DNA of 64,000 nucleotides. Source: Dehalococcoidia bacterium (GTDB lineage Bacteria; Chloroflexota; Dehalococcoidia; GIF9; AB-539-J10). Below the pieces are notes generated by a model. The model did not search any database. It was not told the DNA's origin and saw only the letters and a program-made list of their open reading frames with translations. The position numbers were made by a program, and so were the translations under genes. The DNA is taken from assembly GCA_049678605.1 (NCBI GenBank), contig JBAUEM010000014.1:873-64872 (forward strand), read 5' to 3'. This document shows, one piece after another, positions 23,055 through 57,400 of this stretch. Numbering within the stretch: position 1 is the stretch's first letter; every line of letters starts with the position of its first letter.

Positions 23055-23110
23055 TTTCCCACCTCCTATTCTAGACTATAACAAAGTACCATCTATCGCC
23101 TACGTTGTCT
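22781..23110. repeat. 330-bp direct repeat, copy 2 (partner at 15543-15873)
   Basis: See copy 1. Confidence 0.9.
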
Positions 23111-29577: not shown

Positions 29578-29720
29578 AAAAGGAGAAGCGTGGCAATCCC
29601 GCTGGCAGCGTATTCAATGGCATTTGAGACATAATACCTAATTTGTAGTAGGCCTAATTAGTATGGTGTCCCTGGAATTCGCAAGAAAGTCCGTTTTTTG
29701 CTACAATGGAGAGCCGAGCA

Positions 29721-40397: not shown

Positions 40398-41246
40398 CTA
40401 TCTTATTAATTCCTCCAGGGTCTTATCGCCGGTCCCTGATGGGTAGTATTTGAGCTCCGCCTCGTATTTCGGGTCTGGACCTATGACATCCATGGTGCTA
40501 TCCACCGCCTCTTTTATAGTCGCCTTCTCCGAGCATAGCTGTCCAATTAAATAAGGAGTGGCTTCATCCACATAGTGCAAATCCACGCTGGCATCCCAGG
40601 CAAGATAGGCCGAGGCGCCTTTATCAACAAATGCTTCAGCCAGGTCTGTCAAATAGATGCCGGAACAGCCCATCATTATGATGACGGTATCATCAAATTC
40701 CTTTGTCATACTTTTGCTGATGAATTTTTGCGATATACTGAACACCCAGGGATAACCTTCAGCAATGCTGGCCATAAACAGTCGGTCGTCTAACACATCG
40801 AGCTGATGCTTTTTCCAGTCAAATTCCTCATTGGTAAACAATGTGGTCTTGTAATATGTCTGTTCCTCTCCTTCCAGTATACCGGAATGAGATCGAAAGA
40901 CGATTAGTTTATAGCCACGGCCTGACAGCCCGCGGTAAAAATCAACCGTAATATTATTACCCTGGTAGAGGTCAACTTCAAAGCCGTAGTCCTCAAGCTC
41001 ACTGGTGACCTCTGTAATAAAGTCTTCGTTTTCCCGGAAGCTAGAAAGCTGGTCAACGATTGCTGCCTTTAGCTTCCCCCCGTTATCCGCAGGGGGCTGG
41101 CCCACGGGGTAGATACGGACAAAGACAACAATGCCGGCAATGGCTAATGCTATAAGCAGCCAGGCAAACCAGGGCAAGCCCCGAAAAAGGGGTTTGCCTT
41201 TAGCTTGCTTTCCTTTAGTCTGGTTCTTAGCCTTTGCTTTAGCCAA
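40398..41246 (-). CDS. Membrane-anchored extracytoplasmic protein with caspase/gingipain-like (clan CD) His...Cys arrangement
   Basis: Lys-rich cytoplasmic N-terminus and one TM helix. After that come strand-His (KLIVFRSHSG) and strand-Cys (TVIIMMGCSG), followed by LAEAFVDKGASAYLAWDASV, resembling the post-Cys helix and GAxA strand of C25-type peptidases. The fold call is pattern-based only. Confidence 0.6.
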   Translation of the reverse strand: MAKAKAKNQTKGKQAKGKPLFRGLPWFAWLLIALAIAGIVVFVRIYPVGQPPADNGGKLKAAIVDQLSSFRENEDFITEVTSELEDYGFEVDLYQGNNITVDFYRGLSGRGYKLIVFRSHSGILEGEEQTYYKTTLFTNEEFDWKKHQLDVLDDRLFMASIAEGYPWVFSISQKFISKSMTKEFDDTVIIMMGCSGIYLTDLAEAFVDKGASAYLAWDASVDLHYVDEATPYLIGQLCSEKATIKEAVDSTMDVIGPDPKYEAELKYYPSGTGDKTLEELIR

Positions 41247-42254: not shown

Positions 42255-43853
42255 CTATTTCGTAGCCCTGCGGCGCCTTCGCACCAGCAAGATTGTCCCA
42301 ACTATGATGGCTGCGCCAACGGCAATCCAGGGTGCTATGGCACGCAGTGTATCAATGGGAGATATGGGAGCTTCCGTCTCAGTAAGTGTCAGGATCACTG
42401 CGAGTGTCCGGGGTGTAATGGCTGCTCCAGCCGCTGCTACGGTTATTGTGGCGGAATAATCACCAGCGCTCATACCTGCTATATCTACAGAAGCCGTTAC
42501 CTCATCATGCTCACCGGTGGAACTACCATTTGTGGGCACTAAGGTCAGCCAGGCAGCGTCATCACTCACCGACCAATCTAGAGTACCCGTAACGGAGTTC
42601 CAGATTTCCAGTGTCTGATTTGCCGAGTTCGCCTCGCCAGCCACAGCGCTGAAACTCAAGCTCGCCGGACCGAAAGCAATCGTGGGAGCTTCCGTCTCAG
42701 TAAGGGGCAGGCTCACCGCCAGTGTCCGGGGTGTATTAGTTGCTCCAGCCGCTGCTATGGTTATGGTGGCGGAATAATCACCAGTGCTCATATCTGCTAT
42801 ATCTACAGAAGCCGTTACCACATCGTGCTCACCGGTGGAACTACCACTTGTGGGCGATAAGCTAAGCCAGTCGGCGTCATCACTCACCGACCAATCTAGA
42901 GTACTCGTACCGGAGTTCCAGATTTCCAGTGTCTGATTTGCCGGGTTAGCCTCACCAGCCACAGCACTGAAACTCAAGCTCGCCGGACCGAAAGCAATCG
43001 TGGGACCTTCCGTCCCAGTAAAGGTCAGGCTCACCACCAGTGTCCGGGGTGTATTAGGTGCTCCAGCCGCTGCTATGGTTATGGTGGCGGAATAATCACC
43101 AGTGCTCATACCTGTTACATCTACAGAAGCCGTTACCTCATCATGCTCACCGCTGGAACTACCACTCGTCGGCGCTAAGGCCAGCCAGGCAGCGTCATCA
43201 CTCACCGACCAGTCAAGCGTTCCTGGGCCTGAGTTCCATATCTCCAGTATCTGACTCGCCGGATTTGCTCCGCCCGCGGTGGCAAGGAAGGTAAACCTTT
43301 TTGGGTTAAAGGCTATGGTTGGTTCTGTTGGCAGAGAGACCTGCACTGAATGGTCCTCCGTGGTAGTGCTGATGAGGTTCGCCTGCCAATCATACATCCC
43401 TACCTCCTCCGGGGTGATATCGCTGGTGCTGCCGCCGGAGCCAAGAACCTCGAAGTGTATTTGGGCAAGGTAGCCCGTGCCAGTGACGCCGGGCGCGGGT
43501 GCGGCCGGTGTGGTGGCAATCACCCTGATTCTTCCTGTATCCACGGTATCCGGGGGGATATAGACCCAGTCACCTGGTTCTACCACAACGGTGTGACCAT
43601 CGATTTCGCCGCCTGTGACATCGGTCACGGTGATAATATTTTCGTCATAGGTAACATCGAAGCCGCAGATATTGTAGTTCTCCACGTAATCCACAGTCAC
43701 ATCGGCAACGAAGGAGCTTCCCGGATTCACCTCAGCTGGGGCATCTATGCCCACCGTCACCGTGCCATTGGCGCCAGTAATAGAAAGTGGCAGCAATGCC
43801 AGTGCCAGGCCCAGGCTTACTATGATGGCTAAAATGCCTTTCCAATGTTTCAT
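42255..43853 (-). CDS. Anchor protein A: signal peptide + cohesin + 3 BACON-like domains + C-terminal TM/RRRRR
   Basis: The cohesin-like module (about 43338-43766) reads GTVTVGIDAPAEVNPGSSFVADVTVDYVENYNICGFDVTYD...GTGYLAQIHFEVLG. It is followed by three ~105-aa repeats (L.FSAVAGEANPANQTLEIWNSG..LDWSVSDDA.WL.L.PTSGSS.GEHD.VTASVD...GDYSATITIAAAG). The C-terminus is PWIAVGAAIIVGTILLVRRRRRATK. Confidence 0.85.
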   Translation of the reverse strand: MKHWKGILAIIVSLGLALALLPLSITGANGTVTVGIDAPAEVNPGSSFVADVTVDYVENYNICGFDVTYDENIITVTDVTGGEIDGHTVVVEPGDWVYIPPDTVDTGRIRVIATTPAAPAPGVTGTGYLAQIHFEVLGSGGSTSDITPEEVGMYDWQANLISTTTEDHSVQVSLPTEPTIAFNPKRFTFLATAGGANPASQILEIWNSGPGTLDWSVSDDAAWLALAPTSGSSSGEHDEVTASVDVTGMSTGDYSATITIAAAGAPNTPRTLVVSLTFTGTEGPTIAFGPASLSFSAVAGEANPANQTLEIWNSGTSTLDWSVSDDADWLSLSPTSGSSTGEHDVVTASVDIADMSTGDYSATITIAAAGATNTPRTLAVSLPLTETEAPTIAFGPASLSFSAVAGEANSANQTLEIWNSVTGTLDWSVSDDAAWLTLVPTNGSSTGEHDEVTASVDIAGMSAGDYSATITVAAAGAAITPRTLAVILTLTETEAPISPIDTLRAIAPWIAVGAAIIVGTILLVRRRRRATK

Positions 43854-43878
43854 AATCTCACCTCCTTGTGTTATGCAG

Positions 43879-46368
43879 CTACGAAAAGTAGATTGTCTTA
43901 ATTGCAGTTATATCCCCAGTATCTATCATTTCATCACCATTGACATCGGCACAATCGGTTGGGGGGTCTAGTTCAAAGTAAATCCTCTTTGCCTTGGTGA
44001 TGTCCCCGCTATCTACGACGCCATCTCCATTAGCATCGCCCACTATACATACGAACAAGGCTAGAATCTTCTGATCAGTGTTAGGCGTGGTGAACGAATC
44101 GGTAACGGTAACTGTGACACTGAAGCCGCCAGATGCTGTCGGTGTTCCTGAGATAACTCCAGCCAGGGAGCAAGTTAAGCCAGCGGGTAATCCAGTCGCC
44201 CCCCAGGTACGAGGAGTCTTACCACCAGTTGCCACAAGAGTTGTCGAGTAGGCGTATCCTATCTTTATATTAGGAAGAGAAGTTGTGGTTATCTCCAGAG
44301 CGGCATATACCTTCAAGGCTAGAATCTTCTGGTCAGTGTTAGGCGTGCTGAACGAATCGGTAACAGTAACTGTGACACTAAAGTCACCCGACGCCTCCGG
44401 TGTTCCTGAGATGACTCCAGCCGTGGAGCAAGTTAAGCCAGTGGGTAATCCGGTCGCCACCCAGGTACGAGGAGTCTTACCACCAGTCGCCGTAAGAGTC
44501 GCCGAGTAGGCATCTTCTTCCTTCGCCTCAGGAAGAGAAGTTGTGGTTATCTCCAGAGCGGCATATACCTTCAAGGCTAGAACCTTCTCATCTGTATTAG
44601 GTGTGGAGAAGGAATCAGTAACGTTAACTGTGGCCGTGAAGTCACCCGACTCCGTCGGTGTTCCTGAGATGACTCCAGCCGTGGAGCAAGTTAAGCCAGC
44701 AGGTAATCCAGTCGCCCCCCAGGTATAAGGAGTCTTACCGCCGATGGCCGTAAAAGTTGCCGAGTAGGCATCTCCTACCTTCGCCTCAGGAAGGGAAGTT
44801 GTGGTTATCTCAAGGGGTGGGTATACCTTCAAGGCTAGAGTCGTCTGAGCAGTGTTAGGCGTGGAGAAGGAATCGGTAACGGTAACTGTGACACTGAAGT
44901 CGCCAGACGCTGTCGGAGTTCCTGAAATCACTCCAGCCGTGGAGCAAGTTAAGCCAGCAGGTAATCCAGTCGCCCCCCAGGTATAAGGAGTCTTACCGCC
45001 GATGGCCGTAAGAGTTGCCGAGTAGGCATCTCCTACCTTCGCCTCAGGAAGGGAAGTCGTGGTTATCTCAAGGGGTGGGTATACCTTCAAGGCTAGAATC
45101 TTCTGGTCAGTGTTAGGCGTGCTGAACGAATCGGTAGCAGTAACTGTGACACTAAGGTCGCCAGACTCCGTCGGAGTTCCTGAAATCACTCCAGCCGTGG
45201 AGCAAGTTAAGCCAGCAGGTAATCCAGTCGCTCCCCAGGTATAAGGTGGCTGACCACCACTTGCCGCAAGAGTCGCCGAGTAGGCATCTCCTACCTTCGC
45301 CTCGGGAAGAGAAGTTGTGGTTATCTCCAGAGCGGCATATACCTTCAAGGCTAGAATCTTGCTATCTGTATTAGGTGTGGAGAAGGAATCAGTAACGTTA
45401 ACTGTGGCCGTGAAGTCACCCGACTCCGTTGGAGTTCCTGAGATAACTCCATCCGCTGAGCAAGCTAAGCCAGCAGGTAATCCAGTCGCCCCCCAGGTAT
45501 GAGGAGTCTTACCACCAGTCGCTGCGAGAGTTGTGGTGTAAGGGTTCCCCGGGTACCCGTTAGGAAACGTAGTAGTGGTTATCTCAAGAGCAGGATATAC
45601 CTTTAAAGCTAGACCCTTGCTATCAGTGTCAGGTGGGCCGGCATCATCAGTAACGGTAACAGTGGGCGTGAAGTCACCCGACGCCGTTGGAGTTCCTGAG
45701 ATAACTCCAGCCGTGGAGCAACTTAAGCCACCAGGTAACCCGGTTGCCCCCCAGTTATAAGGTGGCTGACCACCGGTTGCCTCCAGCGTTGCCTCATAGT
45801 AGTCTCCTACCTTCGCCTCAGGAAGCGAAGTCGTGGTTATCTCCAGGGGGAAGGGAGCAGCAACATGTACCGAGTCATCTACTGTGGTCGTATCTATCTT
45901 GTTAGCCTCATAGTCATACATCCCCACCCCTTCCAGATGTATGGCACTGGTCTCGCAACTGGAGCCCAAAACATTGAAGTTTATTTGGGCGATGTGGCCT
46001 GTGCCAGTGACTCCAGGTCCGGGCATGCCGGGTACGACAGCGAGCACCCTGATTTTCCCTGGATCCGACGGACCGGAGGGATAGTAGACCCAGTCGACTT
46101 CAACGGCGTGACCATCGATTTCGCCGCCTGTGACATCGGTCACGGTGATAATTGTTTGGTCATAGGTAACGTCAAAGCCGCAGGCATCGTAGTTCTCCAC
46201 ATAATCCACAGTCACATTGGCAACGAAGGAGCTTCCCGGATTCACCTCAGCCGGGGCATCAATGCTCACCGTCACCGTGCCATTGGCGCCAGTAATAGAA
46301 AGTGGCAGCAATGCCAGTGCCAGGCCCAGGCTGACTACGATGGCTAAAATACCTTTCCAATGTTTCAT
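43879..46368 (-). CDS. Scaffold protein B: signal peptide + cohesin + 7 He_PIG-like Ig repeats + dockerin
   Basis: Cohesin about 45862-46281. Seven 86-aa repeats follow (LEITTTSLPEAKVGDAYSATL.A.GG..PYTWGATGLPAGLTCSTAGVISGTPT.SGDF..TVTVTD). The dockerin at 43882-44049 reads GDANGDGVVDSGDITKAKRIYF...CADVNGDEMIDTGDITAIKTIYFS. Confidence 0.88.
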   Translation of the reverse strand: MKHWKGILAIVVSLGLALALLPLSITGANGTVTVSIDAPAEVNPGSSFVANVTVDYVENYDACGFDVTYDQTIITVTDVTGGEIDGHAVEVDWVYYPSGPSDPGKIRVLAVVPGMPGPGVTGTGHIAQINFNVLGSSCETSAIHLEGVGMYDYEANKIDTTTVDDSVHVAAPFPLEITTTSLPEAKVGDYYEATLEATGGQPPYNWGATGLPGGLSCSTAGVISGTPTASGDFTPTVTVTDDAGPPDTDSKGLALKVYPALEITTTTFPNGYPGNPYTTTLAATGGKTPHTWGATGLPAGLACSADGVISGTPTESGDFTATVNVTDSFSTPNTDSKILALKVYAALEITTTSLPEAKVGDAYSATLAASGGQPPYTWGATGLPAGLTCSTAGVISGTPTESGDLSVTVTATDSFSTPNTDQKILALKVYPPLEITTTSLPEAKVGDAYSATLTAIGGKTPYTWGATGLPAGLTCSTAGVISGTPTASGDFSVTVTVTDSFSTPNTAQTTLALKVYPPLEITTTSLPEAKVGDAYSATFTAIGGKTPYTWGATGLPAGLTCSTAGVISGTPTESGDFTATVNVTDSFSTPNTDEKVLALKVYAALEITTTSLPEAKEEDAYSATLTATGGKTPRTWVATGLPTGLTCSTAGVISGTPEASGDFSVTVTVTDSFSTPNTDQKILALKVYAALEITTTSLPNIKIGYAYSTTLVATGGKTPRTWGATGLPAGLTCSLAGVISGTPTASGGFSVTVTVTDSFTTPNTDQKILALFVCIVGDANGDGVVDSGDITKAKRIYFELDPPTDCADVNGDEMIDTGDITAIKTIYFS
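44050..45855 (-). repeat. Array of 7 tandem 258-bp coding repeats (He_PIG-like units) in scaffold B
   Basis: The 258-bp period is visible as recurring antisense ORFs starting MVISRA/GGYTFKAR at 44285, 44543, 45059, 45317 and 45575. Confidence 0.9.
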
Positions 46369-46372
46369 AATC

Positions 46373-48808
46373 TCACCTCCTTTTGTTATGCAGGGAGCTA
46401 ACTCCGAAATAGATTATCTTAATTGCAGTTATATCCCCGGTATCTATCATTTCATCTCCATTGGCATCGGCACAGGGCGTTGGGGGGTCTAATGCAAAGT
46501 AAATCCTCTTTACCTTGGTGATGTCCCCGGCGTCTACGACGCCATCCATGTTGGCATCGCCCAGCTTACATGATATCGTCAGGCTTAGAACCTCCTCATC
46601 AGTGTTACCTAGAGCACCGGTGACAGTGACCGTGACATTGAAGCTACCAGCTTCCGCTACCGGAGTTCCTGAGATGACTCCAGCGGCGGAGCAGGTCAAG
46701 CCAGGAGGTAATCCAACTGCATTCCAGGAATAAGGAGTCTTACCGCCGGTGGCTTCAAGGGTGGCCGAGTAGGCATCCCCTACCTTCCCTTCGGGAAGCG
46801 TAGTTGTGGTTATCTCCAGGGCAGGGTACACCTTCAGGGCTAGGTCTGTGCTGTCAGTGTTAGCTGGGTCGAAGGAGTCGGTGACAGTAACCGTGACAGT
46901 GAAGTCACCATCCTCTGTTGGAGTCCCTGAGATGACTCCAGCCGCGGAGCAAGTCAAACGGGCAGGCAATCCAGTCGCCCCCCAGGTATAACCTGGCTTA
47001 CCACCGGTCGCCGTAAGAGTCGCTGAGTAGGCATCCCCTACTTTGCCTTCGGGAAGCTCAGTTGTGGTTATTTCCAGGGGTGGGTATACCTTCAGGGCCA
47101 GGTCTGTGCTGTCAGTGTTAGCTGGGTCGAAGGAGTCGGTAACAGTAACCGTGACGATGAAGTCGCCAGATGCTGTTGGAGTCCCTGAGATGACTCCAAC
47201 GGCGGAGCAATTCAAACCGGCAGGCAGTCCAGTTGCCTCCCAGGTGTAGGGCGGGACGCCGCCCGTGGCCTCCATGGTTTCCTCGTAAGCCTCACCTACC
47301 ACTCCGTCAGACAGGTGGGTGGTGAGGATGGAAAGCTCCACTTCGGTCCTTACTCTCGCCCGAAGGCAGGCATTCCCTTCACTTGTGGCAAGGTCGTCCC
47401 ACGTGCCGACATCCCCACATCTGGCATAAGATACGCCAGTCTGTATTGGCGGGTCAGCAAGCGCCCACCTGGTTTCAACGGGTATAGGGTAATTATAACC
47501 CGGCGTGGTCATATTGAGGGCTATGGTAAACGGCTGGCCACTGGCCAGCGAGACGGGAGAGCTAAGCGGTATAGAGTAGTAACCCAACTCCTGGCAAGTC
47601 CCCGATTGTAACGTGGCCGGGTCGTCGAGGCCATCGGAGATGTCGCCGTCGAGGTACACATAAATATCATACTCGGCGTTGTTGCTGGTGGTCCAGAAGT
47701 CAACGTGGGTGAGGCTGCCATCCTGAGTTGAGGTGAAGATGTTGGCCATCCAGGCGGAGGGCGCACCGCAGCCACCGTCGGCAACCATGCCAGCTTCGTC
47801 CCAGTAGTAGAGCTTCTCATTCGGGTCGTAATCTTTGTACTCGAGGTAGGCTATCTCCTCCATGCAGCTTGAATTGTAGGCTAGCCAGAAATAGCCACTG
47901 TCGCCCCAAGTTGTCCCCCAGCTATTCTTAACTAGCCAGGCACCAGTCCCCCCCGGCGGCTCAAAGTGGGGAACACTGTCATCCCAACCAATAATAGAGA
48001 CGAGATGGTTAGCAGCCGGACATTCATCGCAATCATAAACAGTGCCATAGGTAGCATCAGTGTATACATGCGCTCCATGATGATAGAAAGCCATGGTCAC
48101 AGGTCCCTGGTTATATACCACCTCTTTTATCAAACCGGTTTGGCTTTGGTCGTTGGTTACCAATCTATATCCATTGACTCTCTTAACAGGTGTGCAGTTG
48201 TCACACAGGCAAGCGCCGTTGCACTGCAAACCAGATGAATTGTAAGGATTGCACGACTCTAAAACTGCGCCTTTTTTGATAAAGACTTCGCTAGCGAGCC
48301 AGCTCCATCCACCACCATGAGATGGCTCTATCCCGCAGGGTTCGTCAGAATCATCGTAAAGATAGACCCAAGAACGGTCCACGCATAAAGCCACACTCTG
48401 TTCAGAAAAATCGTACCCTGTATTTTCACCGATCAAAACTGCTGATTCCAAGACAGAGGTAGTGCCAAAAATCCAGCAAGTTCCGCAGGAAAGCTGGTTT
48501 TTTATAGAGGTCACCTTGTCCTGGTCTCTCCAGTCGAAGCTGTCGGGGAGAGCGCCTGATTTCAAGAGACCTCCCGCAGGGATTGCATCGAGGTGGCTCA
48601 GGTCCATAGGCGGAGGAATATAGCCATAGAAAGGCTCCGGTGGCTCCTCCCAGAACTTGACGAAATCAGGATTCAGTGGACCTAGATGGAAAGTGTCATC
48701 TTCCTGGGCCTGGAGGTCGCTCATGCCTGCGGGGGGCATTAGGGCGATAGCAGCAAGCATGACCAGAGAACAAATTATCTTGAGCTTTTTGTCCCGATTA
48801 AGAATCAT
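46373..48808 (-). CDS. Dockerin-bearing papain-family (C1) cysteine protease with lectin-like domain and 3 He_PIG repeats
   Basis: The signal peptide follows the ATG at 48808 (GGAGGAG RBS). Catalytic triad context is NQLSCGTCW (Cys codon 48476-48478), NHLVSIIGWD and LVKNSWGTTWGDSGYFW. Three He_PIG units lie at 46571-47335 and the dockerin at 46403-46570. Confidence 0.88.
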   Translation of the reverse strand: MILNRDKKLKIICSLVMLAAIALMPPAGMSDLQAQEDDTFHLGPLNPDFVKFWEEPPEPFYGYIPPPMDLSHLDAIPAGGLLKSGALPDSFDWRDQDKVTSIKNQLSCGTCWIFGTTSVLESAVLIGENTGYDFSEQSVALCVDRSWVYLYDDSDEPCGIEPSHGGGWSWLASEVFIKKGAVLESCNPYNSSGLQCNGACLCDNCTPVKRVNGYRLVTNDQSQTGLIKEVVYNQGPVTMAFYHHGAHVYTDATYGTVYDCDECPAANHLVSIIGWDDSVPHFEPPGGTGAWLVKNSWGTTWGDSGYFWLAYNSSCMEEIAYLEYKDYDPNEKLYYWDEAGMVADGGCGAPSAWMANIFTSTQDGSLTHVDFWTTSNNAEYDIYVYLDGDISDGLDDPATLQSGTCQELGYYSIPLSSPVSLASGQPFTIALNMTTPGYNYPIPVETRWALADPPIQTGVSYARCGDVGTWDDLATSEGNACLRARVRTEVELSILTTHLSDGVVGEAYEETMEATGGVPPYTWEATGLPAGLNCSAVGVISGTPTASGDFIVTVTVTDSFDPANTDSTDLALKVYPPLEITTTELPEGKVGDAYSATLTATGGKPGYTWGATGLPARLTCSAAGVISGTPTEDGDFTVTVTVTDSFDPANTDSTDLALKVYPALEITTTTLPEGKVGDAYSATLEATGGKTPYSWNAVGLPPGLTCSAAGVISGTPVAEAGSFNVTVTVTGALGNTDEEVLSLTISCKLGDANMDGVVDAGDITKVKRIYFALDPPTPCADANGDEMIDTGDITAIKIIYFGVSSLHNKRR

Positions 48809-48882
48809 GGCTTTGCATCTCCTCCATTGGGCTAACGAAATTTCGTAGCAGTTTAGTTTCCCCAAAACTCTAGCTATAGTTC

Positions 48883-48910
48883 ACAGTATACCACTCCCCC
48901 GCACTGTCAA
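48883..48910 (-). promoter_or_regulatory. Candidate internal promoter for protease-scaffold B-anchor A
   Basis: The minus strand reads TTGACA-16 nt-TACTGT, about 75 nt upstream of the ATG at 48808. Confidence 0.3.
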
Positions 48911-49276
48911 GCGAGCGCCACCAGGCATCGTCACATCTATGCACAAATTTCGACTCAATCGGGACAGGTCGAAAATCCGGATGACAGGACGAAGTAGCTT
49001 TGACATTTGGGTTTGTTGAGGGTCAGGGCTTGTCCCCGAGTTCCAGTATGATTCTCTCTGTCCTGGCTGGGGAGAGTTAGACCCGTCCTTTTCACGAGGC
49101 GTGAACAACCTGTCCTGAAAAGAGCCGAAGAGTGAGACAATTTCAGCCCCATCCTTCGATAAACGCAGGACAGGCTCCTTATCCCTCCCGTCGAGGGACA
49201 GGAAACAGCGGGACTCCGTAGGGGTGGAACTCCCCGACTAAGGCGGAGATGAACTCCGCCCCTACGATTGAGTCCT

Positions 49277-49933
49277 CTATCTTATAGCCCTGCGGCGCCT
49301 TCGCACCAGCAGGCTTGTCCCAACTATGATGGCTGCGCCAACGGCAATCCAGAGCGCCACAATAGCCACCTTACTAATGGGACGAGCAGTACCGCCAACA
49401 GGAGGTGCAGGACCGCTTATGTCCACTGAAGCGCCCATTGTGGTAGTACTAATAGCGAGCGCGTTGCAATCATACATTCCTACCCCTTCCAGGTTGATGA
49501 CGCTACTATCGCCGCCGGAGCCAACAGCATCGAAGTGTATTTGGGCAAGGTAGCCCGTGCCATTGATCCCACACCCGGGTGGGCCCGATATGGTGGCCGC
49601 CACCCTGATTCTTCCTGTATCCGGGCCAGCAGGAATGTAGGACCAGTCGCCTGGAGCTACTTCAACGGCGTGACCATCGATTACGCCGCCTGTGACATCG
49701 GTCGCCGTGATAACTGTTTCGTCATAGGTAACATCGAAGCCGCAGGAGTCGAAGTCCGTCACCCAATCCACAGTCACATTAGCAACGAAGGAGCTTCCCG
49801 CCTCCACCTCAGCCGGGGCATCTATGCCCACCGTCACCGGGCCATTGTCGCCGCCCGTAATAGAAAGTGGCAGCAATGCCAGTGCCAGGCCCAGGCTTAC
49901 TATAATTGCTAAAATGCCTTTTCTATGGTGCAT
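49277..49933 (-). CDS. Anchor protein D: signal peptide + cohesin + C-terminal TM/RRRRR
   Basis: Cohesin at about 49418-49843 (GPVTVGIDAPAEVEAGSSFVANVTVDWVTDFDSCGFDVTYD...). The C-terminus VALWIAVGAAIIVGTSLLVRRRRRAIR is nearly identical in DNA to the 3' end of anchor A. Confidence 0.85.
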   Translation of the reverse strand: MHHRKGILAIIVSLGLALALLPLSITGGDNGPVTVGIDAPAEVEAGSSFVANVTVDWVTDFDSCGFDVTYDETVITATDVTGGVIDGHAVEVAPGDWSYIPAGPDTGRIRVAATISGPPGCGINGTGYLAQIHFDAVGSGGDSSVINLEGVGMYDCNALAISTTTMGASVDISGPAPPVGGTARPISKVAIVALWIAVGAAIIVGTSLLVRRRRRAIR

Positions 49934-49962
49934 AATCTCACCTCCTTGTGTTATGCAGGGAG

Positions 49963-50048
49963 CTAACTAGCTCCGAAGTAGGTTATCCTACTTGCAGTTA
50001 TATCTCCAGTATCTATCTTACCATCTCCATTGACATCGGCACAATTGG
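49963..50048 (-). pseudogene. Orphan dockerin second-half remnant
   Basis: The minus strand encodes TNCADVNGDGKIDTGDITASRITYFGAS-stop, immediately after and out of frame with the scaffold E stop. It duplicates the last 26 codons of a dockerin. Confidence 0.8.
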
Positions 50049-52532
50049 TTATCCAAAGTAGATTATCCTAATTGCAGTTATATCTCCAGTATCTACCTTA
50101 CCATCATCATTGACATCGGCACAATCGGTTGGGGGGTCTATTCCGAAGTAAATCCTCTTTACCTTGGTGATGTCCCCAGTATCTACGACGCCATCTCCAT
50201 TAGCATCGCCCACTATACATACCCACAAGGCTAGAATCTTCTGGTCAATGTTAGGCGTGGTGAACGAATCGGTAACAGTAACTGTGACACTGAAGTTACC
50301 CGACACTGTCGAGTTTCCTGAGATGACTCCAGCCGTGGAGCAAGTTAAGCCGGCGGGTAATCCAGTCGCCCCCCAAGTATGAGGAGTCTTACCACCGGTC
50401 GCCACAAGAGTTGTCGAGTAGGCGTATCCTATCTTTATATTAGGAAGGGAAGTTGTGGTTATCTCCAGAGCGGCATATACCTTCAAGCTTAAAACCTTGT
50501 TAACAATGTTGGGCGGGCTGAACGAATCGGTAGCAGTAACTGTGACACTAAAGTCGCCAGATGCTGTCGGAGTTCCTGAGATGACTACAGCCGTGGAGCA
50601 AGTCAAGCCAGCGGGTAATCCAGTCGCCCCCCAGGTATGAGGAGTCTTACCACCGGTTGCCGTAAGAGTCGCCGAGTAGGGATCTCCTACCTTCGCCTCG
50701 GGAAGAGGAGAAGTTGTGGTTATCTCCAGAGCGGCATATACCTTCAAGGCTAGAATCTTGCTATCTGTATTAGGAGTGGAGAAGGAATCGGTAACAGTAA
50801 CTGTGACACTGAGGTCGCCAAATGCCGTCGGAGTTCCTGAGATGACTCCAGCCGTGGAGCAAGTTAAGCCGGCAGGCAGTCCAGTCGCCACCCAGGTACG
50901 AGGAGTCTTACCGCCAGTGGCCGTAAGAGTCGCCGAGTAGGCATCTCCTACCTTCGCATCAGGAAGAGAAGTCGTGGTTATCTCAAGGGGTGGGTACACC
51001 TTCAAGGCTAGAATCTTGCTATCTGTATTAGGCGTGGAGAAGGAATCGGTAACGGTAACTGTGACACTAAAGTCGCCAGATGCTGTTGGTGTTCCTGAAA
51101 TCACTCCAGCCGTGGAACAAGTTAAGCCAGCAGGTAACCCAGTCGCCCCCCACGTATAACCTGGCTTACCACCGGTCGCCGTAAGAGTCGCCGAGTAGAC
51201 ATCTCCTACCTTCGCCTCAGGAAGAGAAGTTGTGATTATCTCCAGAGCGGGGTATACCTTCAAGGCCAGGTCCTTGCTCTCGCTGTCGGGCGGAGTGGCG
51301 GAATCAGTAACGGTAACTGCGACCGTGAAGTCACCCGACGCCGTTGGAGTTCCTGAGATAACTCCAGCCGTGGAGCAGGTCAAGCCGGCAGGTAATCCGG
51401 TCGCCCCCCAGGTATAAGGAGGCGTACCACCACTTGCCTCAAGAGTCACCGTGTAGGAATCTCCCACCTTCGCCTCGGGGAGTGAGGTCGTGCTTATCTC
51501 AAAATACGATATCCTCAGGCTTAGGACCTCTTCATCAGTGTTAGGCGTGGAGAAGGAATCGGTAACAGTAACCGTGACACTGAAATCACCAGTTGCTGTT
51601 GTAGTTCCTGAGATAACTCCCGCCGTGGAGCAACTTAAGCCGGCAGGTAATCCGGTCGCCCCCCAGGTAAGCGGTGGCTTACCACCAGTCGCCGCGAGAG
51701 TTGCGCTGTAGGGCTCCCCCGGGGTCCCGCTAGGAAGTGCAGTAGTGGTTATCTCAAGGGCAGGATATACCTTCAAAGCTAGACCCTTGCTATCAGTGTC
51801 GGGTGGGCCGGCGGAATCGGTAACAGTAACTGTGACCGTGAAGTCGCCGGATGCCGTTGGAGTTCCTGAGATAACTCCAGCTGTGGAGCAAGTTAAGCCG
51901 GCAGGTAACCCGGTCGCCCCCCAGGTGTAAGGTGGCTGGCCACCAGTGGCCGTAAGAGTCGCCGAGTAGACATCGCCTACCTTCGCCTCGGGAAGTGAAG
52001 TTGTGGTTATGCCCAAGACATCAGCGACATGTACAGAGTCATCCACTGTGGTCGTATCTATCCTGTTAGCCTCATAGTCATACATCCCCACCCCTTCCAG
52101 ATGTATGGCACTGGTTTGGCAACCGTAGCCCACAACATTGAAGTGTATTTGGGCGATGTAGCCTGTGCCAGTGACTCCAGGCCCAGGTATGCCTGCTATG
52201 CCAGTGATCACCCTGATTCTTCCTTGGTCCGGGCCAGAGGGGATATAGAACCAGTCGCCTGGATCTACTTCAACGGTGTGACCATCGATTTCGCCGCCTG
52301 TAACATCGGTCACGGTGATAATTGTTTCGTCATAGGTAACATCGAAGCCGCAGGAGTTGAAGTCCGTCACCCAATCCACAGCCACATCGGCAACGAAGGA
52401 GCTTCCCGGATTCACCTCAGCCGGGGCAACTATGCTCACCGTCACCGTGCCATTGGCGCCAGTAATAGAAATGGGGACCAACGCCAAACAAAAAACTACG
52501 AGCCAGGGTAAAAAATGCCTAAACTTTCCCAT
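50049..52532 (-). CDS. Scaffold protein E: signal peptide + cohesin + 7 He_PIG-like repeats + dockerin
   Basis: Cohesin about 52026-52451 and dockerin at 50052-50219 (GDANGDGVVDTGDITKVKRIYFGIDPPTDCADVNDDGKVDTGDITAIRIIYFG). The architecture is the same as scaffold B. Confidence 0.88.
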   Translation of the reverse strand: MGKFRHFLPWLVVFCLALVPISITGANGTVTVSIVAPAEVNPGSSFVADVAVDWVTDFNSCGFDVTYDETIITVTDVTGGEIDGHTVEVDPGDWFYIPSGPDQGRIRVITGIAGIPGPGVTGTGYIAQIHFNVVGYGCQTSAIHLEGVGMYDYEANRIDTTTVDDSVHVADVLGITTTSLPEAKVGDVYSATLTATGGQPPYTWGATGLPAGLTCSTAGVISGTPTASGDFTVTVTVTDSAGPPDTDSKGLALKVYPALEITTTALPSGTPGEPYSATLAATGGKPPLTWGATGLPAGLSCSTAGVISGTTTATGDFSVTVTVTDSFSTPNTDEEVLSLRISYFEISTTSLPEAKVGDSYTVTLEASGGTPPYTWGATGLPAGLTCSTAGVISGTPTASGDFTVAVTVTDSATPPDSESKDLALKVYPALEIITTSLPEAKVGDVYSATLTATGGKPGYTWGATGLPAGLTCSTAGVISGTPTASGDFSVTVTVTDSFSTPNTDSKILALKVYPPLEITTTSLPDAKVGDAYSATLTATGGKTPRTWVATGLPAGLTCSTAGVISGTPTAFGDLSVTVTVTDSFSTPNTDSKILALKVYAALEITTTSPLPEAKVGDPYSATLTATGGKTPHTWGATGLPAGLTCSTAVVISGTPTASGDFSVTVTATDSFSPPNIVNKVLSLKVYAALEITTTSLPNIKIGYAYSTTLVATGGKTPHTWGATGLPAGLTCSTAGVISGNSTVSGNFSVTVTVTDSFTTPNIDQKILALWVCIVGDANGDGVVDTGDITKVKRIYFGIDPPTDCADVNDDGKVDTGDITAIRIIYFG
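50220..52020 (-). repeat. Array of 7 tandem ~258-bp coding repeats (He_PIG-like units) in scaffold E
   Basis: Same unit as in scaffold B. Antisense ORFs recur at 50455, 50716, 50974, 51232, 51490 and 51745. Confidence 0.9.
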
Positions 52533-52557
52533 CTCTTATCTTTCACCTCCTTTCTTA

Positions 52558-53112
52558 TCAATCGAGTCCCATAATGATTCTTTTTATCTTGGTTATGTCT
52601 CCGGTATCTATAAAGCCGTCCTGATTAGCATCAGCACAGGGCGTTGGGGGGTCCAATCCCATAATGATTCTCTTCACCTTGGTTATGTCCCCGGTATCTA
52701 CCACGCCATCTCCGTTAGCATCGCCAGGGATGCAACCGGGTAGACGCAAGGGATGGTAGACCGTCCCGATCTTTTCAAAGGTACCACTGGCTGCCGCTAT
52801 AACATTGCCTCCATAGTTTACGCTAAAGTATACGGTCTCACCCTCATCGGCCTCATCGCCAGGCACATCTACCCAGTAATATGACACCCCGTGCTGCATA
52901 TAGAGGGTAGCAGGGCACGGCCCAACATAAGGGTCTTCCAGCCAAGCAGTTACCACTGTGCCATCAGGCACATTTTGGTCACCGATAGTCACCGGTCCAA
53001 AAAAGCGGCACTCTGGACCGACGTGAGCGAGAACTATACCAGGCAACAGAGCCAGGACAACCATAGCTACCACCGCAAATAAGTGTAATACCTTTACGTT
53101 GCCTCTTCTCAT
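52558..53112 (-). CDS. Small secreted dockerin protein (unknown ~95-aa domain + dockerin)
   Basis: GAAGGAGGG RBS and a signal peptide. The dockerin at 52561-52734 reads GDANGDGVVDTGDITKVKRIIMGLDPPTPCADANQDGFIDTGDITKIKRIIMGLD. Confidence 0.8.
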   Translation of the reverse strand: MRRGNVKVLHLFAVVAMVVLALLPGIVLAHVGPECRFFGPVTIGDQNVPDGTVVTAWLEDPYVGPCPATLYMQHGVSYYWVDVPGDEADEGETVYFSVNYGGNVIAAASGTFEKIGTVYHPLRLPGCIPGDANGDGVVDTGDITKVKRIIMGLDPPTPCADANQDGFIDTGDITKIKRIIMGLD

Positions 53113-53199
53113 CCCTTTTTCCCTCCTTCACATAAGACTGATTAGCGACTGCCAATCTGAACTAGAGAGCTCATTTTGGCCTCAAACATAAACATAGGG

Positions 53200-53233
53200 T
53201 ATAGGCAGCCCCAGAAATCTGGGACTGCCTATA
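53200..53233 (-). terminator. Stem-loop between the 1201-aa gene and the small dockerin gene (weak terminator or processing site)
   Basis: TATAGGCAGCCCC...GGG(A)CTGCCTATA forms a roughly 13-bp interrupted stem. The downstream minus-strand tract CCCUAUGUUUAUGUU is only moderately U-rich. Confidence 0.3.
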
Positions 53234-53275
53234 CAACTCATTCAGCTAAGGGCATTAACTTACCCACGCCAGAGA

Positions 53276-56200
53276 TTACGTTCCAAGGTAAATCCTCTTT
53301 ACCTGGGTTATGTCTCCCGCATCTACGAAGCTGTCCTGATTGGCATCGGCTCCAATAGTGGCAGGATCTATTCCAAAGTAAATCCTCTTTACCTTAGTGA
53401 TGTCTCCGGTATTCACCACATTGTCCTGATTGGCATCACCCAGCATCAGCGGGTCATCAGGTTCGTCTACTACCGCGAAGTCGAGGTTCCACTGACGGGT
53501 TATCGTGCCTTCCTCTTCGAAGAGCCACGCCGTCAGGCTAGCCCTAGTGGCGAGCTCGTCAGTGTAGACCAATACTGCGGCAACGGCATGGTGACATTCA
53601 TCATCAGGCCAGAATTTCTCCCACAAGGCCAGCTCCTCAGGACCGGGCTCCTTCATGAAACTTTCACCCATGGTTCTGTCGAGATTAGTAACACTTCCAT
53701 AGGTGCCAGCAAGGAAGCCATTCTCAACGTCAATATCGGGTAGACAAATGCTGACGCCCTCGTTCGTAATGTTCGGGATAATGGCCATCTGTGCACCATC
53801 AACTGTACCTAAATTCCACTCGACTCTCTCACCAACTACCGGGAAGCCATCTCGGTCGCAGGCCCAGATGAATGCCATCTTATAGTTGGTCAGTTCGGGG
53901 TTCAAGCAAGAGACGACGTCGTCTACCTGGAACACCATGCGAGTGTCAGGGGGATCGTTTGGCTCTGGGTCATTGCCCCTGATATCCTTGCCCCAGGTCC
54001 AGGTCTTTTCGACATCGTTGGAAACCACATACAGATGCTTGCGCAGGTAAGGGTAGTCAGCGATAGCCTTTACTGTGGTGTTACCTACTATCTCCCCTGT
54101 GGGAATGTCATAGCCACCAACGACCAGCCAGGCGCTGAGGTCAAGGTTCCAGTCACCGTTGAGCCAGACCATGGCCTCACCGTGGTTGTCGGAGTAGACC
54201 TCAACCTTGGTTGGGTGCTGCGGGTCATATGGAGTCACACCGGGTAGCTGGTTGATAATGTCCCAGAAGGGGTAAGGTCCGTAGGAATCAACCTCAAAAC
54301 CGTAGCTATCCCAGTCATAGCCGCCGTTGTTGATGAAGGGCGGGATAAACGGACTGCTGGCTATCATCTCCTCATAGAATGGGTTGGTGTAGACGATGCC
54401 TTCGGGTCCGGGATTGTTCAGGTCTCTCTCAACCCACTCGTAGTAGATGTCGCCCTTGTCAGCGTCTTTGAAGAATCCAACACCCTCGGTAATCTTGAAG
54501 ACTATCTTGGCTGGCGGCATGGGGCAGTCCCACCAGTTCAGCTTACCATTGCGGACAATTGTCTTGCGGTCAAGCTTATAATCGTGATCGATGGTTGGAC
54601 TGTAGGTATCCAGGGTGCTGTAAGGTCCGATAACCGGAGCCTGAGCTACCAGGGCACCAGGTATGTCAAGCCTCGTGGGACGTTCGTCGAGAGTCCACTC
54701 TAGGTAGTCACCCAGCTCCTCAGCATGGTCGAGATTGCTGTCAATCTCGCTCATGATGTTGTCATTGGGCTGACACATAATGTCATAATGCGGGCGTAGC
54801 TCCGCCCACTCAGCGCCAGCCAGGATTGGCCAGTCGTCGGGAAGAACCCAGCGTCCCTCGGGAAGTCTGGTCTCAGCAAAACCATCGCCATCGAGGTCAA
54901 CAAGTTTATCCTCTCTCCAGCTCAGGTTATCGCCCATAAACCAGCCCTTGACTCGAGTGCGGAGTAGGGCATCCTGGGATACGTTCAGTTCCTGCGACAG
55001 ATCATCAAGAGTAGGATCCCAGACAGGATCGCTAATCTCGTAGTACCATTGCACATCAGGACCTGGAGGACTTGGTATGGTGGTCCAGTCTGTAGTAACC
55101 ACCACGGTATCGGCGGTATTGCTCTCTATCTCCCGTATCTGTAGGTCACCTATGAAGGTGATGCTGCCATCATCTTCCTCTTCTCCCTTCCATACCTCGA
55201 TAGTCTTTCCTACAAACTCGTCTACCGCCCAGTTCGCAGTGGGGTCCCAAATGTCATTGGGGAAGGCATCATAGACCATACCACTGTCGAGTACAGGATC
55301 CCACAGTCCATCGTCGTGATAAGCTCTCTCGCCCTGCATGTTGCCCAGGGTGAGTTCCTCAAATTTGAGGAAGAACACCACAAAGCCGTGCTGGTTGATG
55401 AGTTGCCATGGCTCAAGTTCATCATACAAGGCGCATGCCACATCGCACTCGCCGGGCTTCTCGGAAAACACGATGCAGCGAGCAACACCATCCTCGTCAA
55501 CAGTAGTCCAGACAGTGTCCTGCATACCGGTAGCCGGCATCCAATTAGATTGTGGTACGACGGCCTCCAAGGTTCCAGGAGACTCATTCTCAAGGGTAAA
55601 GCATACGTCAAAGCCAGTATAGCTCGTGCCGAACTGCTTCTCCAGGACTATTTTCTCTCCGGCCCATCTTACCTGGGGAACCTTCTCAAGTTCCTGAGTC
55701 CAGAAGTTCCAACTGATGATCTCGGGGAAAACAGGCCACTCGTCGTAGTGAAGCCGGTCAGGATACTTGGCGACAACGACGATCTTCACCGCTTCCTCAC
55801 CGCAGGCAATCAGCTCTACTCCGGTTAGTCCGGTCATCATACCGTCTATATCTGCATCACCACTTTCGGTTTCTATGTACTTGGTGCTACAGTCTTCGGG
55901 ATTGCCATTCAAGAAACCGACAAGTCGTGAGGGGTATGCGGCCTGCATGTCATCGATAAGAGTAACCAGCCCAGGCTGCAACCCCAACATGGGGTCCATC
56001 CAGTCACCAGCAGGAATGCCGCTGGGCAGGTCGTGTACCGGAGCTCGGGCATCCATCACCCACCATTCAACATCGGCACCGTCGGCAAAAGAGAGAAACT
56101 CCTCTCCACCATCGGTTATGAAGTTGCCGATAATCAAATCGTACAAATAGGCTTCGCCTTCCCACTTCTTCAGATTCTCGTTCCACCAGACTTGGGTTTC

Positions 56201-56881
56201 GCCCGAGTCATAAATCTCTTCTTCGGTGTACGAATCCCACGCGAAGAGCCAGGTGTCAAAGATCTTGCCCCACTTCTTTATGGCCATGAGGGTGGTGGCG
56301 GGGTAATCCGTGAAAGCCTCAGTATCGGCATAGATTACCAGCTCGCCCCAGCCGCTGCCGTGTACTGTGACGCAATTGTCAAAAGGGTCGCCGCCGGATA
56401 CTATGCTCCAGGCGCCATTAAGGTAAAAACTGGACTCAAAGCGCCACTGCATGACGTGACCCATATAGAGATCAGGAACACAGAATGTGGCCTCAGTGCC
56501 AATGATATTGTACTCCTGCTGGGGTATCAGGCCCACGCCTATCAGAATCTCAAACTCGGCGTCCTGATCCAGGCCTCCCCACCACCCGGTAGCTGATATG
56601 ACATGCATTCCCGCAGAAAGGGCAGGGAACGTCGTGGTCAATTCGAACGGAGCTGTATTGTCAGTGCTGTCATAAGTCCCGTCTATATACCAGTCAACGC
56701 TATCAGCCGTCGGATTGGTCGCGGCCTCGAAGGTCACAGTCTCGCCTTCCTTGGCATAGGGGGGACCAGCGATGACGATATCGGCATGTCCCGCCAGGAC
56801 TGTCAGCGGCATCAGGCCGACAACGAGTGCTAAAGCAAAGATAAGATATAACGCTTTAGCGTGCCATTTAGGTTTTTTCAT
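53276..56881 (-). CDS. 1201-aa secreted dockerin protein of unknown function
   Basis: GGAGGAAATAA RBS and a signal peptide (ALYLIFALALVVGLMPLTVLA). About 1100 aa have no motif I can place. The dockerin at 53279-53443 reads GDANQDNVVNTGDITKVKRIYFGIDPATIGADANQDSFVDAGDITQVKRIYLGT. Confidence 0.85.
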   Translation of the reverse strand: MKKPKWHAKALYLIFALALVVGLMPLTVLAGHADIVIAGPPYAKEGETVTFEAATNPTADSVDWYIDGTYDSTDNTAPFELTTTFPALSAGMHVISATGWWGGLDQDAEFEILIGVGLIPQQEYNIIGTEATFCVPDLYMGHVMQWRFESSFYLNGAWSIVSGGDPFDNCVTVHGSGWGELVIYADTEAFTDYPATTLMAIKKWGKIFDTWLFAWDSYTEEEIYDSGETQVWWNENLKKWEGEAYLYDLIIGNFITDGGEEFLSFADGADVEWWVMDARAPVHDLPSGIPAGDWMDPMLGLQPGLVTLIDDMQAAYPSRLVGFLNGNPEDCSTKYIETESGDADIDGMMTGLTGVELIACGEEAVKIVVVAKYPDRLHYDEWPVFPEIISWNFWTQELEKVPQVRWAGEKIVLEKQFGTSYTGFDVCFTLENESPGTLEAVVPQSNWMPATGMQDTVWTTVDEDGVARCIVFSEKPGECDVACALYDELEPWQLINQHGFVVFFLKFEELTLGNMQGERAYHDDGLWDPVLDSGMVYDAFPNDIWDPTANWAVDEFVGKTIEVWKGEEEDDGSITFIGDLQIREIESNTADTVVVTTDWTTIPSPPGPDVQWYYEISDPVWDPTLDDLSQELNVSQDALLRTRVKGWFMGDNLSWREDKLVDLDGDGFAETRLPEGRWVLPDDWPILAGAEWAELRPHYDIMCQPNDNIMSEIDSNLDHAEELGDYLEWTLDERPTRLDIPGALVAQAPVIGPYSTLDTYSPTIDHDYKLDRKTIVRNGKLNWWDCPMPPAKIVFKITEGVGFFKDADKGDIYYEWVERDLNNPGPEGIVYTNPFYEEMIASSPFIPPFINNGGYDWDSYGFEVDSYGPYPFWDIINQLPGVTPYDPQHPTKVEVYSDNHGEAMVWLNGDWNLDLSAWLVVGGYDIPTGEIVGNTTVKAIADYPYLRKHLYVVSNDVEKTWTWGKDIRGNDPEPNDPPDTRMVFQVDDVVSCLNPELTNYKMAFIWACDRDGFPVVGERVEWNLGTVDGAQMAIIPNITNEGVSICLPDIDVENGFLAGTYGSVTNLDRTMGESFMKEPGPEELALWEKFWPDDECHHAVAAVLVYTDELATRASLTAWLFEEEGTITRQWNLDFAVVDEPDDPLMLGDANQDNVVNTGDITKVKRIYFGIDPATIGADANQDSFVDAGDITQVKRIYLGT

Positions 56882-57252: not shown

Positions 57253-57281
57253 AGTATAACTAGGCATCTTCTTTTTGTCAA
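57253..57281 (-). promoter_or_regulatory. Candidate promoter P2 of the cohesin-dockerin cluster
   Basis: The minus strand reads cctaTTGACA-17 nt-TATACT, about 365 nt upstream of the ATG at 56881. Confidence 0.5.
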
Positions 57282-57370
57282 TAGGTTGCTTCAGTCGCCA
57301 TTTATTTGGCATGCTTACCTTTGTATTTCTATTTGTCACCCCCACGGTGCGGCTAAGCAACTCGCCTCCC

Positions 57371-57400
57371 GTTATATCATCCTTCGTTGAGTATTGTCAA
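57371..57400 (-). promoter_or_regulatory. Candidate promoter P1 (tandem, same cctaTTGACA box)
   Basis: The minus strand reads cctaTTGACA-18 nt-TATAAC. Confidence 0.4.

Follow-up and report, generated by a model that had tools for sequence, protein, structure and literature searches.

Seven neighbouring genes at 42255-56881 of a 64,000-nucleotide (nt) stretch of DNA from a Dehalococcoidia bacterium (contig JBAUEM010000014.1; hereafter the window, meaning the whole stretch analysed) encode what is likely a real surface assembly of cohesin- and dockerin-bearing proteins. On the whole, we incline to the view that this assembly tethers to the cell a protein of 1201 amino acids (aa), BIG, together with a small protein, SMALL, and a papain-like protease, PROT, and that it makes up a coat or adhesion layer and is not degradative; taken by itself, the role in coat formation or adhesion rather than degradation is proposed tentatively and with somewhat less than even confidence. 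The cluster holds four cohesins and five dockerins, distributed over two membrane anchors (ANCH_short and ANCH_BACON), two scaffolds (SCAF1 and SCAF2) and the three dockerin-only cargos.

An earlier note on this DNA had arrived at the same inventory, and it stands: the coordinates of the seven same-direction open reading frames (ORFs), all on the minus strand, were confirmed, one N-terminal hydrophobic segment is present in each protein, as expected for its signal-peptide reading, and a second, C-terminal segment followed by RRRRR occurs only in the two anchors. The five Pfam families it had expected (Cohesin, Dockerin_1, He_PIG, BACON and Peptidase_C1) were all matched in the scan. All seven proteins are acidic, with isoelectric points of 4.0-4.4 (4.05 for BIG). 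The Chloroflexota-like origin supposed in the same note agrees with the identity of ANCH_short, BIG and SMALL to proteins of a Dehalococcoidia bacterium metagenome-assembled genome (MAG) at NCBI, where they are automatically named 'cohesin domain-containing protein', 'Ig-like domain-containing protein' and 'dockerin type I repeat-containing protein', respectively; since these names state cohesin and dockerin, the modules as such had already been annotated.

Cohesin and dockerin modules

The four cohesins score 32.9, 50.1, 29.7 and 35.3 bits against the Pfam model Cohesin (PF00963), all above its gathering score of 24.1 bits, and the matches are near full length, running from model position 1-2 to 132-139 of 139. 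Among themselves, the window cohesins are 66-74% identical; compared with solved structures, their profile finds the ScaC cohesin (5lxv) as the best match (E=0.003). Two of the five dockerin proteins exceed the 22.9 bits of Dockerin_1 (PF00404), SMALL with 33.7 and another with 23.3 bits. The five dockerins share 52-80% identity and consist of two tandem segments of ~22 residues, each a calcium loop followed by a helix, and the residues of the D-x-N-x-D-x3-D-x2-D loop are invariant in all ten repeats. Their joint profile matches 13 solved dockerins, best of all that of Clostridium thermocellum CelS (1daq, E=2e-6). Hidden Markov models (HMMs) built from the window's own modules found exactly four cohesins and five dockerins in the 64 kb, plus one half-dockerin relic.

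Neither Pfam nor NCBIfam revealed an enzyme domain of the glycoside hydrolase, polysaccharide lyase, carbohydrate esterase or carbohydrate-binding module (CBM) classes in the seven proteins; CBM3 was not found in the window proteins either, and with one cohesin per protein none of them is a polyvalent scaffoldin. For the 64 kb covered, the statement of the earlier note that this is not a cellulosome therefore holds. Relatives of the anchor cohesin are numerous (971 among 50%-identity representatives, 365 of them at E<=1e-10): some bear 4-7 cohesins, others are NosD/beta-helix proteins equipped with dockerins, and an M23 peptidase is among them too. The cluster is a compact, monovalent member of a broad and little-studied world of non-cellulosomal cohesins and dockerins.

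Anchors and scaffolds

From their topology signals, ANCH_short and ANCH_BACON are predicted to be type I membrane anchors; neither an SLH domain nor an LPXTG motif nor an NCBIfam sorting signal (PEP-CTERM, PGF-CTERM and others) was detected in them. ANCH_BACON gives three Pfam matches to BACON/BACON_2, and its gene contains 318-nt DNA repeats. Each scaffold gives seven matches to He_PIG, the immunoglobulin (Ig)-like spacer of this cluster, and PROT gives three; the repeat is a unit of 258 nt with 60-90% DNA identity between units. SCAF1 and SCAF2 are put forward as predicted monovalent adaptors or stalks. Because relatives do not all have the same number of He_PIG repeats (4 to 7; four in the related MAG JBAVCL01, locus L001, and seven in the window), stalk length is evolutionarily adjustable.

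The two anchors are 84% identical in DNA over their 3' ends and the downstream hairpin region (repeat family D13), and between neighbouring anchor and scaffold genes the identity at the 5' end reaches up to 93% (repeat family D7). Given this similarity, a scaffold-anchor pair has been duplicated and partly homogenised, and the 93% identity suggests gene conversion. Directly 3' of the SCAF2 stop codon lies the relic of a second dockerin repeat (CADVNGDGKIDTGDITASRITYFGAS*), recognised by the HMM with E=7e-12 on the ORF fragment 49966-50067 (-); its end resembles the '...IYFGAV' termini of the orthologues in L001 and in a second related locus, L004. The relic suggests a trace of past duplication or recombination, namely a duplication in tandem, after which a new stop codon arose.

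BIG, the principal cargo

Pfam recognises only Big_7 and Dockerin_1 in BIG, leaving the body of the protein without a model, and searches of PDB, PHROGs and NCBIfam with its sequence returned nothing apart from the dockerin. A protein search yielded at least 121 relatives of 1000-1300 aa. As judged from these sequences, BIG founds a large, unnamed family of surface proteins of ~1100-1300 aa, with at least 120 sequence clusters, and is the main dockerin cargo in this Chloroflexota group. The earlier note had singled out a protease cargo; a protease with a dockerin is indeed present, but this under-describes the cluster, whose evolutionarily central cargo is the non-catalytic BIG.

An AlphaFold2 model of BIG, calculated from an alignment of 63 sequences (pLDDT 89.2, pTM 0.72), consists almost wholly of beta-sandwich domains, with a loop-rich, strongly conserved core and two C-terminal helices (1128-1138 and 1158-1169, pLDDT ~80) placed directly after the two calcium loops of the dockerin. 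The core (residues ~650-990) modelled separately reached pLDDT 87.7 and pTM 0.83; several of its W, D, H and E residues, such as those in YSDNHGEA, are invariant. When the whole model was compared with PDB by Foldseek, the 50 matches listed comprised only generic multi-Ig proteins (TM-score ~0.1), and the core resembled weakly the domains of Gram-positive adhesins (AspA of the AgI/II type, RspB, SdrC/G; TM-score 0.18-0.26). No enzyme fold was among the 50 matches listed for the core, and no S-layer chain among the 50 listed in either search. BIG was also considered as an enzyme or as a trap of the alpha2-macroglobulin kind and rejected: the matches to alpha2-macroglobulin and complement proteins (TM-score ~0.1) reflect generic Ig arrays, and the 'CGEE' near the candidate position of a thioester is not conserved in the family.

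The C-termini of 120 family representatives were surveyed. A dockerin was found by HMM in 84 of them and a more divergent one in ~9 more; ~25 end in another, Trp-rich module of ~55 aa, and a single one in a transmembrane helix with RRRQ, like the window anchors. Since dockerin, other module and transmembrane anchor replace each other across the family, the C-terminus of BIG is an interchangeable tether, and we regard this swapping as the strongest comparative evidence that the dockerin would hold BIG on the cell. The Trp-rich module (VW.YD....W..Y.P..P.W.N.L..M.....YWI.VS.D..W.Y.; in P0042, P0055, P0102, P0134 and others) is matched by no Pfam model and may serve in docking or anchoring as a module not recognised before.

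Homologues of BIG at 53% and 38% identity adjoin cohesin and dockerin genes, and those at 53% and 37% adjoin a gene for a C1 protease, which in locus L008 also has the lectin-like domain; the locus with the 37% homologue is without any cohesin or dockerin. In L008, a locus free of cohesin and dockerin, the BIG homologue and the C1 protease with lectin-like domain have a gene for a chagasin-family inhibitor of cysteine proteases (Inhibitor_I42, 20770-21186 (+)) in their vicinity, and this inhibitor may control the same protease.

SMALL and the protease

SMALL has 51 relatives, all of ~185-200 aa, and searches of PDB, PHROGs and NCBIfam revealed nothing in it except the dockerin. PROT scores 129 bits against Peptidase_C1 (cut-off 20.7) and 106 bits against Lectin_like PF18560 (cut-off 27), in accordance with its earlier description as papain-like, and the motifs of the catalytic Cys, His and Asn are present (CGTCW, NHLVSIIGW, KNSWG). 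Its ORF as listed begins with TTG at 48865; the ATG at 48808, preceded by the Shine-Dalgarno sequence GGAGGAG, is the likelier start, and it is there that the signal peptide begins. The closest solved relatives are structures of Clostridioides difficile Cwp84 (4ci7 and 4d59), the alignment with 4ci7 covering both the papain and the lectin-like domain. Cwp84 matures the precursor of the S-layer; cleavage of BIG by PROT is, for the time being, a conjecture.

Proteins related to these modules occur in other arrangements elsewhere. In locus L006, from a more distant relative, a papain-family protease (20984-23702 (+)) forms one protein with four cohesins in tandem, PKD domains and a dockerin and is a polyvalent scaffoldin itself; L007 also encodes a multi-cohesin protein.

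Conservation, module specialisation and wiring

Syntenic clusters, for which the earlier note had suggested looking in MAGs, exist on at least four other metagenomic contigs: the seven genes follow in the same order in the Dehalococcoidia MAG JBAVCL01 (L001) and on JGI contigs from three further samples (L003, L004, L005), with anchor identities of 67-81% between the window and the syntenic loci. L011 has a BIG of 52% identity within the same chromosomal surroundings. The search of genome contigs with the cohesin alignment yielded one related MAG, and the wider distribution comes from protein searches.

Neighbour-joining trees of cohesins and dockerins from the window and four loci, which represent three other genomes, group the modules by role. 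The cohesins cluster by role and not by genome, into an ANCH_BACON clade, an ANCH_short clade with a Cys pair of its own (PGCG...MYDC) and a scaffold group; the dockerins fall into those of SMALL, those of BIG, those of the upstream scaffold, and those of PROT together with the downstream scaffold. A Cys pair flanking the first dockerin repeat is absent only from BIG. The dockerins of BIG and SMALL are internally symmetric, with K-x-K-R in both repeats, and those of the scaffolds and PROT are asymmetric, the second repeat having T-A-I-[KR]-[IT]. In relatives, the recognition positions 10/11 and 17/18 vary in concert across both repeats: KR has become KL twice in SMALL of L001, and TG..KR has become M[GAL]..ER twice in more distant SMALL and BIG proteins. 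Such concerted changes would be the signature of functional dual-binding dockerins under selection, co-evolving with their partner.

The earlier note had spoken of self-linking scaffolds, and here the data do not follow it. Because role-specific clades of cohesins and dockerins are kept across genomes, a hierarchy from cargo to stalk to anchor is to be preferred over free self-linking. Clade membership and gene adjacency, on which the wiring is based, suggest that the dockerins of BIG and SMALL would bind the stalk cohesins, and those of the stalks and PROT the anchor cohesins; within each transcription unit, the partners so proposed are encoded side by side.

In the same MAG as L001, locus L002 encodes at 789-4241 (+) a protein of 1150 aa with BNR/Asp-box-like repeats, an M23 peptidase, a cohesin, He_PIG and a dockerin, and P0159 has a similar architecture. 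By its modules, this enzyme, whose gene lies in another part of the related genome, would be plug and socket at once.

Signals for transcription

A gap of 410 nt separates two units, BIG-SMALL-SCAF2-ANCH_short and PROT-SCAF1-ANCH_BACON. It contains a hairpin right 3' of the ANCH_short stop codon (~49242-49260) and a promoter-like stretch, TTGACA ... TGgTATACT, before PROT. Besides the site 5' of BIG (Table 1), a second one, TTGACA-17-TATAAC, lies at ~57370-57399; both are consensus matches only. The hairpin 3' of BIG keeps 14 consensus pairs in five loci, one of them with a BIG of only 53% identity; its loops vary between loci, and one pair is compensated, from UA to CG. Its probable function is that of an attenuating terminator or a 3' stabiliser, which would raise BIG mRNA over that of the downstream genes. 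BIG as a product made in excess fits its position as the first gene, the near-consensus promoter-like site and the conserved 3' hairpin. Together with the size of BIG, its acidity and its all-beta build, these features would also agree with an S-layer protein.

Small genes for GIY-YIG nucleases accompany some of the related clusters. In L004 (11205-11534 (-)) and L005 (6840-7079 (-)) they occupy the stretch that separates the two transcription units, and in L006 they lie upstream of BIG and between the cohesin and protease genes (7922-8209 (+) and 19972-20232 (-)); at the corresponding places of the window no such gene was found.

Coordinates and neighbouring genes

Table 1. Features of the cohesin-dockerin gene cluster, with positions in the window
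Feature	Position	Strand	Description
Promoter-like site TTGACA-17-TATACT	57253-57281	-	11/12 consensus matches; ~370 nt 5' of BIG
BIG, 1201 aa	53276-56881	-	First gene of the cluster; secreted all-beta protein with C-terminal dockerin (53279-53443)
BIG 3' hairpin	53199-53234	-	GC-rich, immediately past the BIG stop codon
SMALL, 184 aa	52558-53112	-	Secreted; ~95-aa domain of unknown fold and near-symmetric dockerin (52561-52728)
SCAF2, 827 aa	50049-52532	-	Signal peptide, cohesin (52026-52442), 7 He_PIG, dockerin (50052-50210)
Half-dockerin relic	49966-50048	-	Out of frame, directly 3' of the SCAF2 stop codon; HMM match
ANCH_short, 218 aa	49277-49933	-	Signal peptide, cohesin (49439-49834), transmembrane helix (49301-49381), RRRRR tail
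Intergenic gap, 410 nt	48866-49276	-	Parts the cluster into two units; hairpin and promoter-like stretch
PROT	46373-48808	-	Signal peptide, propeptide, C1 protease, lectin-like domain, 3 He_PIG, dockerin (~46400-46564)
SCAF1, 829 aa	43879-46368	-	Signal peptide, cohesin (45862-46275), 7 He_PIG, dockerin (43882-44040)
ANCH_BACON, 532 aa	42255-43853	-	Signal peptide, cohesin (43338-43757), 3 BACON, transmembrane helix (42279-42347), RRRRR tail

The cluster is surrounded by ordinary chromosomal genes (lysS, serS, holA, ychF, panC, def and uppS), panC (39070-39909) being preceded by the Rfam pan motif (RF01749, 36537-36617 (+), 39.1 bits), which lies 5' of the pantothenate genes. A transmembrane protein of 282 aa at 40398-41246, which matched nothing in sequence searches of PDB, PHROGs and NCBIfam, was considered as an eighth member and dismissed, as related loci lack it downstream of the cluster. 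Another neighbour, a secreted protein of 736 aa at 34077-36287 (-), contains six copies of CBM_X2, which is the X2 module known from cellulosomal scaffoldins, as well as a CFI-box-CTERM signal (NF041770, 103.6 bits) and a transmembrane helix. Having neither cohesin nor dockerin and a sorting signal of its own, it was not counted to the system either; it is a second surface protein with another anchoring system, 6 kb from the cluster. At 29706-33866 (+), a fusion protein of 1386 aa with two BcrAD_BadFG ATPase domains and DUF2229, of the CoA-enzyme activase type, bears no relation to the cluster. Four antisense ORFs of 125-160 aa (43350-43832, 45865-46347, 49535-49912 and 52029-52511 (+)) were rejected as mechanical and not genes; they resemble each other because the cohesin-coding segments opposite to them are alike.

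Comparison with known systems

With the cellulosomes of clostridia and ruminococci the cluster shares type I-like cohesins and dockerins and a hierarchy of anchor, adaptor and cargo. Its dockerins have the duplicated 22-residue segments of calcium loop and helix known from C. thermocellum, including K-R at positions 17-18, and ScaC of Ruminococcus flavefaciens, whose cohesin is the best solved match, likewise is a monovalent adaptor scaffoldin with one cohesin and one dockerin. Unlike cellulosomes, however, the cluster has no glycoside hydrolases, no CBM3 and no polyvalent scaffoldin; it uses He_PIG and BACON spacers, it has a giant protein without catalytic nature, a small one and a protease for its cargos, its host is a member of the Dehalococcoidia, and a C-terminal transmembrane helix with an Arg cluster takes the place of anchoring by SLH domains or sortase.

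Comparable, too, are the systems of organisms that do not degrade cellulose, such as Archaeoglobus fulgidus, anaerobic methanotrophic archaea (ANME), Seep-SRB and Ca. Stygibacter/Cloacimonadota, which also have cohesins and dockerins. Their cargos include peptidases and binding and adhesin-like proteins, and surface assembly or adhesion has been proposed for them (PMC9012536, PMC10553843, PMC8542988). The window differs from these in its single compact, syntenic cluster of seven genes with defined anchors and in a BIG protein conserved over many lineages. To Cwp84 and SlpA of C. difficile, the likeness lies in the catalytic unit of papain fold and lectin-like PF18560 domain and in a protease placed on the cell surface beside a large surface protein, an arrangement which in the window is predicted from the genes. 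Cwp84, however, is tethered by CWB2 repeats on a peptidoglycan-linked polymer and PROT would be by three He_PIG and a dockerin, and BIG is unrelated to SlpA. The tetrabrachion-protease complex of Staphylothermus marinus, in which long stalks keep a surface canopy at a great distance from the membrane and a protease is attached to the stalk, offers an analogy only: its stalk is a coiled coil, and neither cohesin nor dockerin takes part.

Regarding novelty, the earlier note knew of no functional description of such an operon in a Chloroflexota-like genome, and this part stands, as we found no paper joining cohesin, dockerin and Dehalococcoidia, and dockerin together with Chloroflexota gave only incidental co-mentions. 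The concept itself is less novel than the note had implied, since for other uncultured phyla the literature already infers non-cellulosomal systems whose cargo includes peptidases (PMC8542988, PMC9012536). Non-cellulosomal cohesin/dockerin systems are known, the proteins of the cluster carry automatic names, and the cluster is not a new category; new are the Dehalococcoidia host, the compact operon of anchors, stalks and cargos with transmembrane anchors, the Cwp84-type protease as cargo, and the BIG family as principal dockerin cargo with interchangeable tethers.

Proposed mechanism and alternative explanations

We propose that all seven proteins would be exported by their Sec signal peptides, whereupon the two type I membrane anchors, ANCH_BACON with its three BACON spacers, would present their cohesins on the outside. 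The stalks, each built of a cohesin, seven He_PIG domains and a dockerin, would plug into these anchors by means of their Ca2+-binding dockerins and, at a length of ~25-30 nm, expose a free cohesin at the tip, onto which BIG and SMALL would dock; PROT would dock onto anchor or stalk. The outcome would be a protein layer some tens of nanometres off the membrane with BIG as its main component, and the Cwp84-like PROT could serve as processing or turnover enzyme of this layer. Such a mechanism fits the non-catalytic nature of BIG, the signals for its abundance, the resemblance of PROT to Cwp84, the swapping of tethers and the use of a transmembrane anchor instead of SLH domains or sortase. The Dehalococcoidia lineage generally is without a conventional peptidoglycan wall, and transmembrane anchoring suits this.

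Several observations speak against a coat or tether and should be weighed. Some distant homologues of BIG stand alone, with no protease or cohesin nearby, and S-layer proteins usually evolve faster than BIG does. The conserved core of BIG could form a site for catalysis or for binding a ligand, in a fold absent from PDB. Three of the five dockerins score just below the Pfam threshold (21.4, 19.7 and 17.5 bits), and the related MAG encodes an M23 peptidase that carries a cohesin as well as a dockerin, which fits a degradative role. This last point leads to the idea of a degradative complex on the cell surface, an analogue of the cellulosome scavenging protein or necromass, in which the stalks keep the protease, and further dockerin-bearing enzymes with genes elsewhere in the genome, at a distance from the membrane and BIG and SMALL bind substrate. 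Besides that M23 protein, which also has He_PIG, the idea can draw on the intact papain-family protease among the cargos, on the C1 protease fused to four cohesins in L006, on the glycans that BACON and lectin-like domains may bind and on similar peptidase-bearing complexes inferred in Cloacimonadota (PMC8542988). We nevertheless hold it to be rather unlikely, as the five dockerin proteins include just one recognised enzyme, BIG as the conserved core cargo has no enzyme fold, monovalent scaffolds do not place enzymes side by side, and the closest solved relative of PROT processes the cell's own S-layer precursor. Somewhat less probable again is an apparatus for intercellular adhesion or partner recognition, with BIG as an adhesin on extendable stalks, as was proposed for ANME and their sulfate-reducing partners (PMC10553843, PMC9012536): the surface adhesins AspA, RspB and SdrC/SdrG are the best fold matches of the BIG core, and He_PIG copy number does vary between relatives, yet these matches are weak and concern generic beta-sandwiches, no partner organism is known, and conservation of BIG over many lineages as high as observed would be unusual for a partner-specific adhesin.

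Two further explanations concern the modules themselves. The scaffolds, having cohesin and dockerin on one polypeptide, might polymerise head to tail into filaments, cohesin-Ig7-dockerin chains of variable length, rooted on the anchors and capped by cargo. The mutual similarity of the cohesins (66-74%) and of the dockerins (52-80%) would permit this, and the 93% identity between neighbouring anchor and scaffold 5' ends, suggestive of gene conversion, points in the same direction; we consider it very unlikely, however, since anchor and scaffold cohesins remain in separate clades across four genomes and scaffold dockerins are consistently unlike cargo dockerins, a distinction that would be needless if every module bound every other. 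Next to no credence is given to the possibility that the modules are leftovers, or look-alikes of beta-sandwich and EF-hand type without mutual binding, in genes for unrelated secreted proteins. The sub-threshold scores of the three dockerins and the modest E=0.003 with which the cohesin profile reaches a solved cohesin could be cited in its favour; against it stand the calcium loops invariant in ten repeats, the concerted variation of both repeats in relatives, the full-length match of the cohesin HMM and a strict synteny over at least five contigs.

Significance

Cohesin and dockerin modules are common in non-cellulolytic bacteria and archaea, and almost none of the systems concerned has an assigned function. 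The cluster described here is a small, closed and syntenic system, in which four sockets, five plugs, two membrane anchors and three cargos leave 20 pairings to consider. In its most specific form, which we regard as doubtful, our proposal reads that peptidoglycan-poor Dehalococcoidia wear a coat of BIG, plugged by dockerins onto cohesin stalks of the membrane, with the length of the stalks set by the number of He_PIG domains and the coat remodelled or matured by a Cwp84-like protease. If true, this would be the first S-layer-like envelope tethered by cohesin and dockerin, and it would give a defined job to the widespread non-cellulosomal modules. It would explain how a bacterium without a conventional wall holds a surface layer and, at the same time, would provide protein engineering with cohesin-dockerin pairs that are monovalent, orthogonal by nature and already fitted with Ig spacers.

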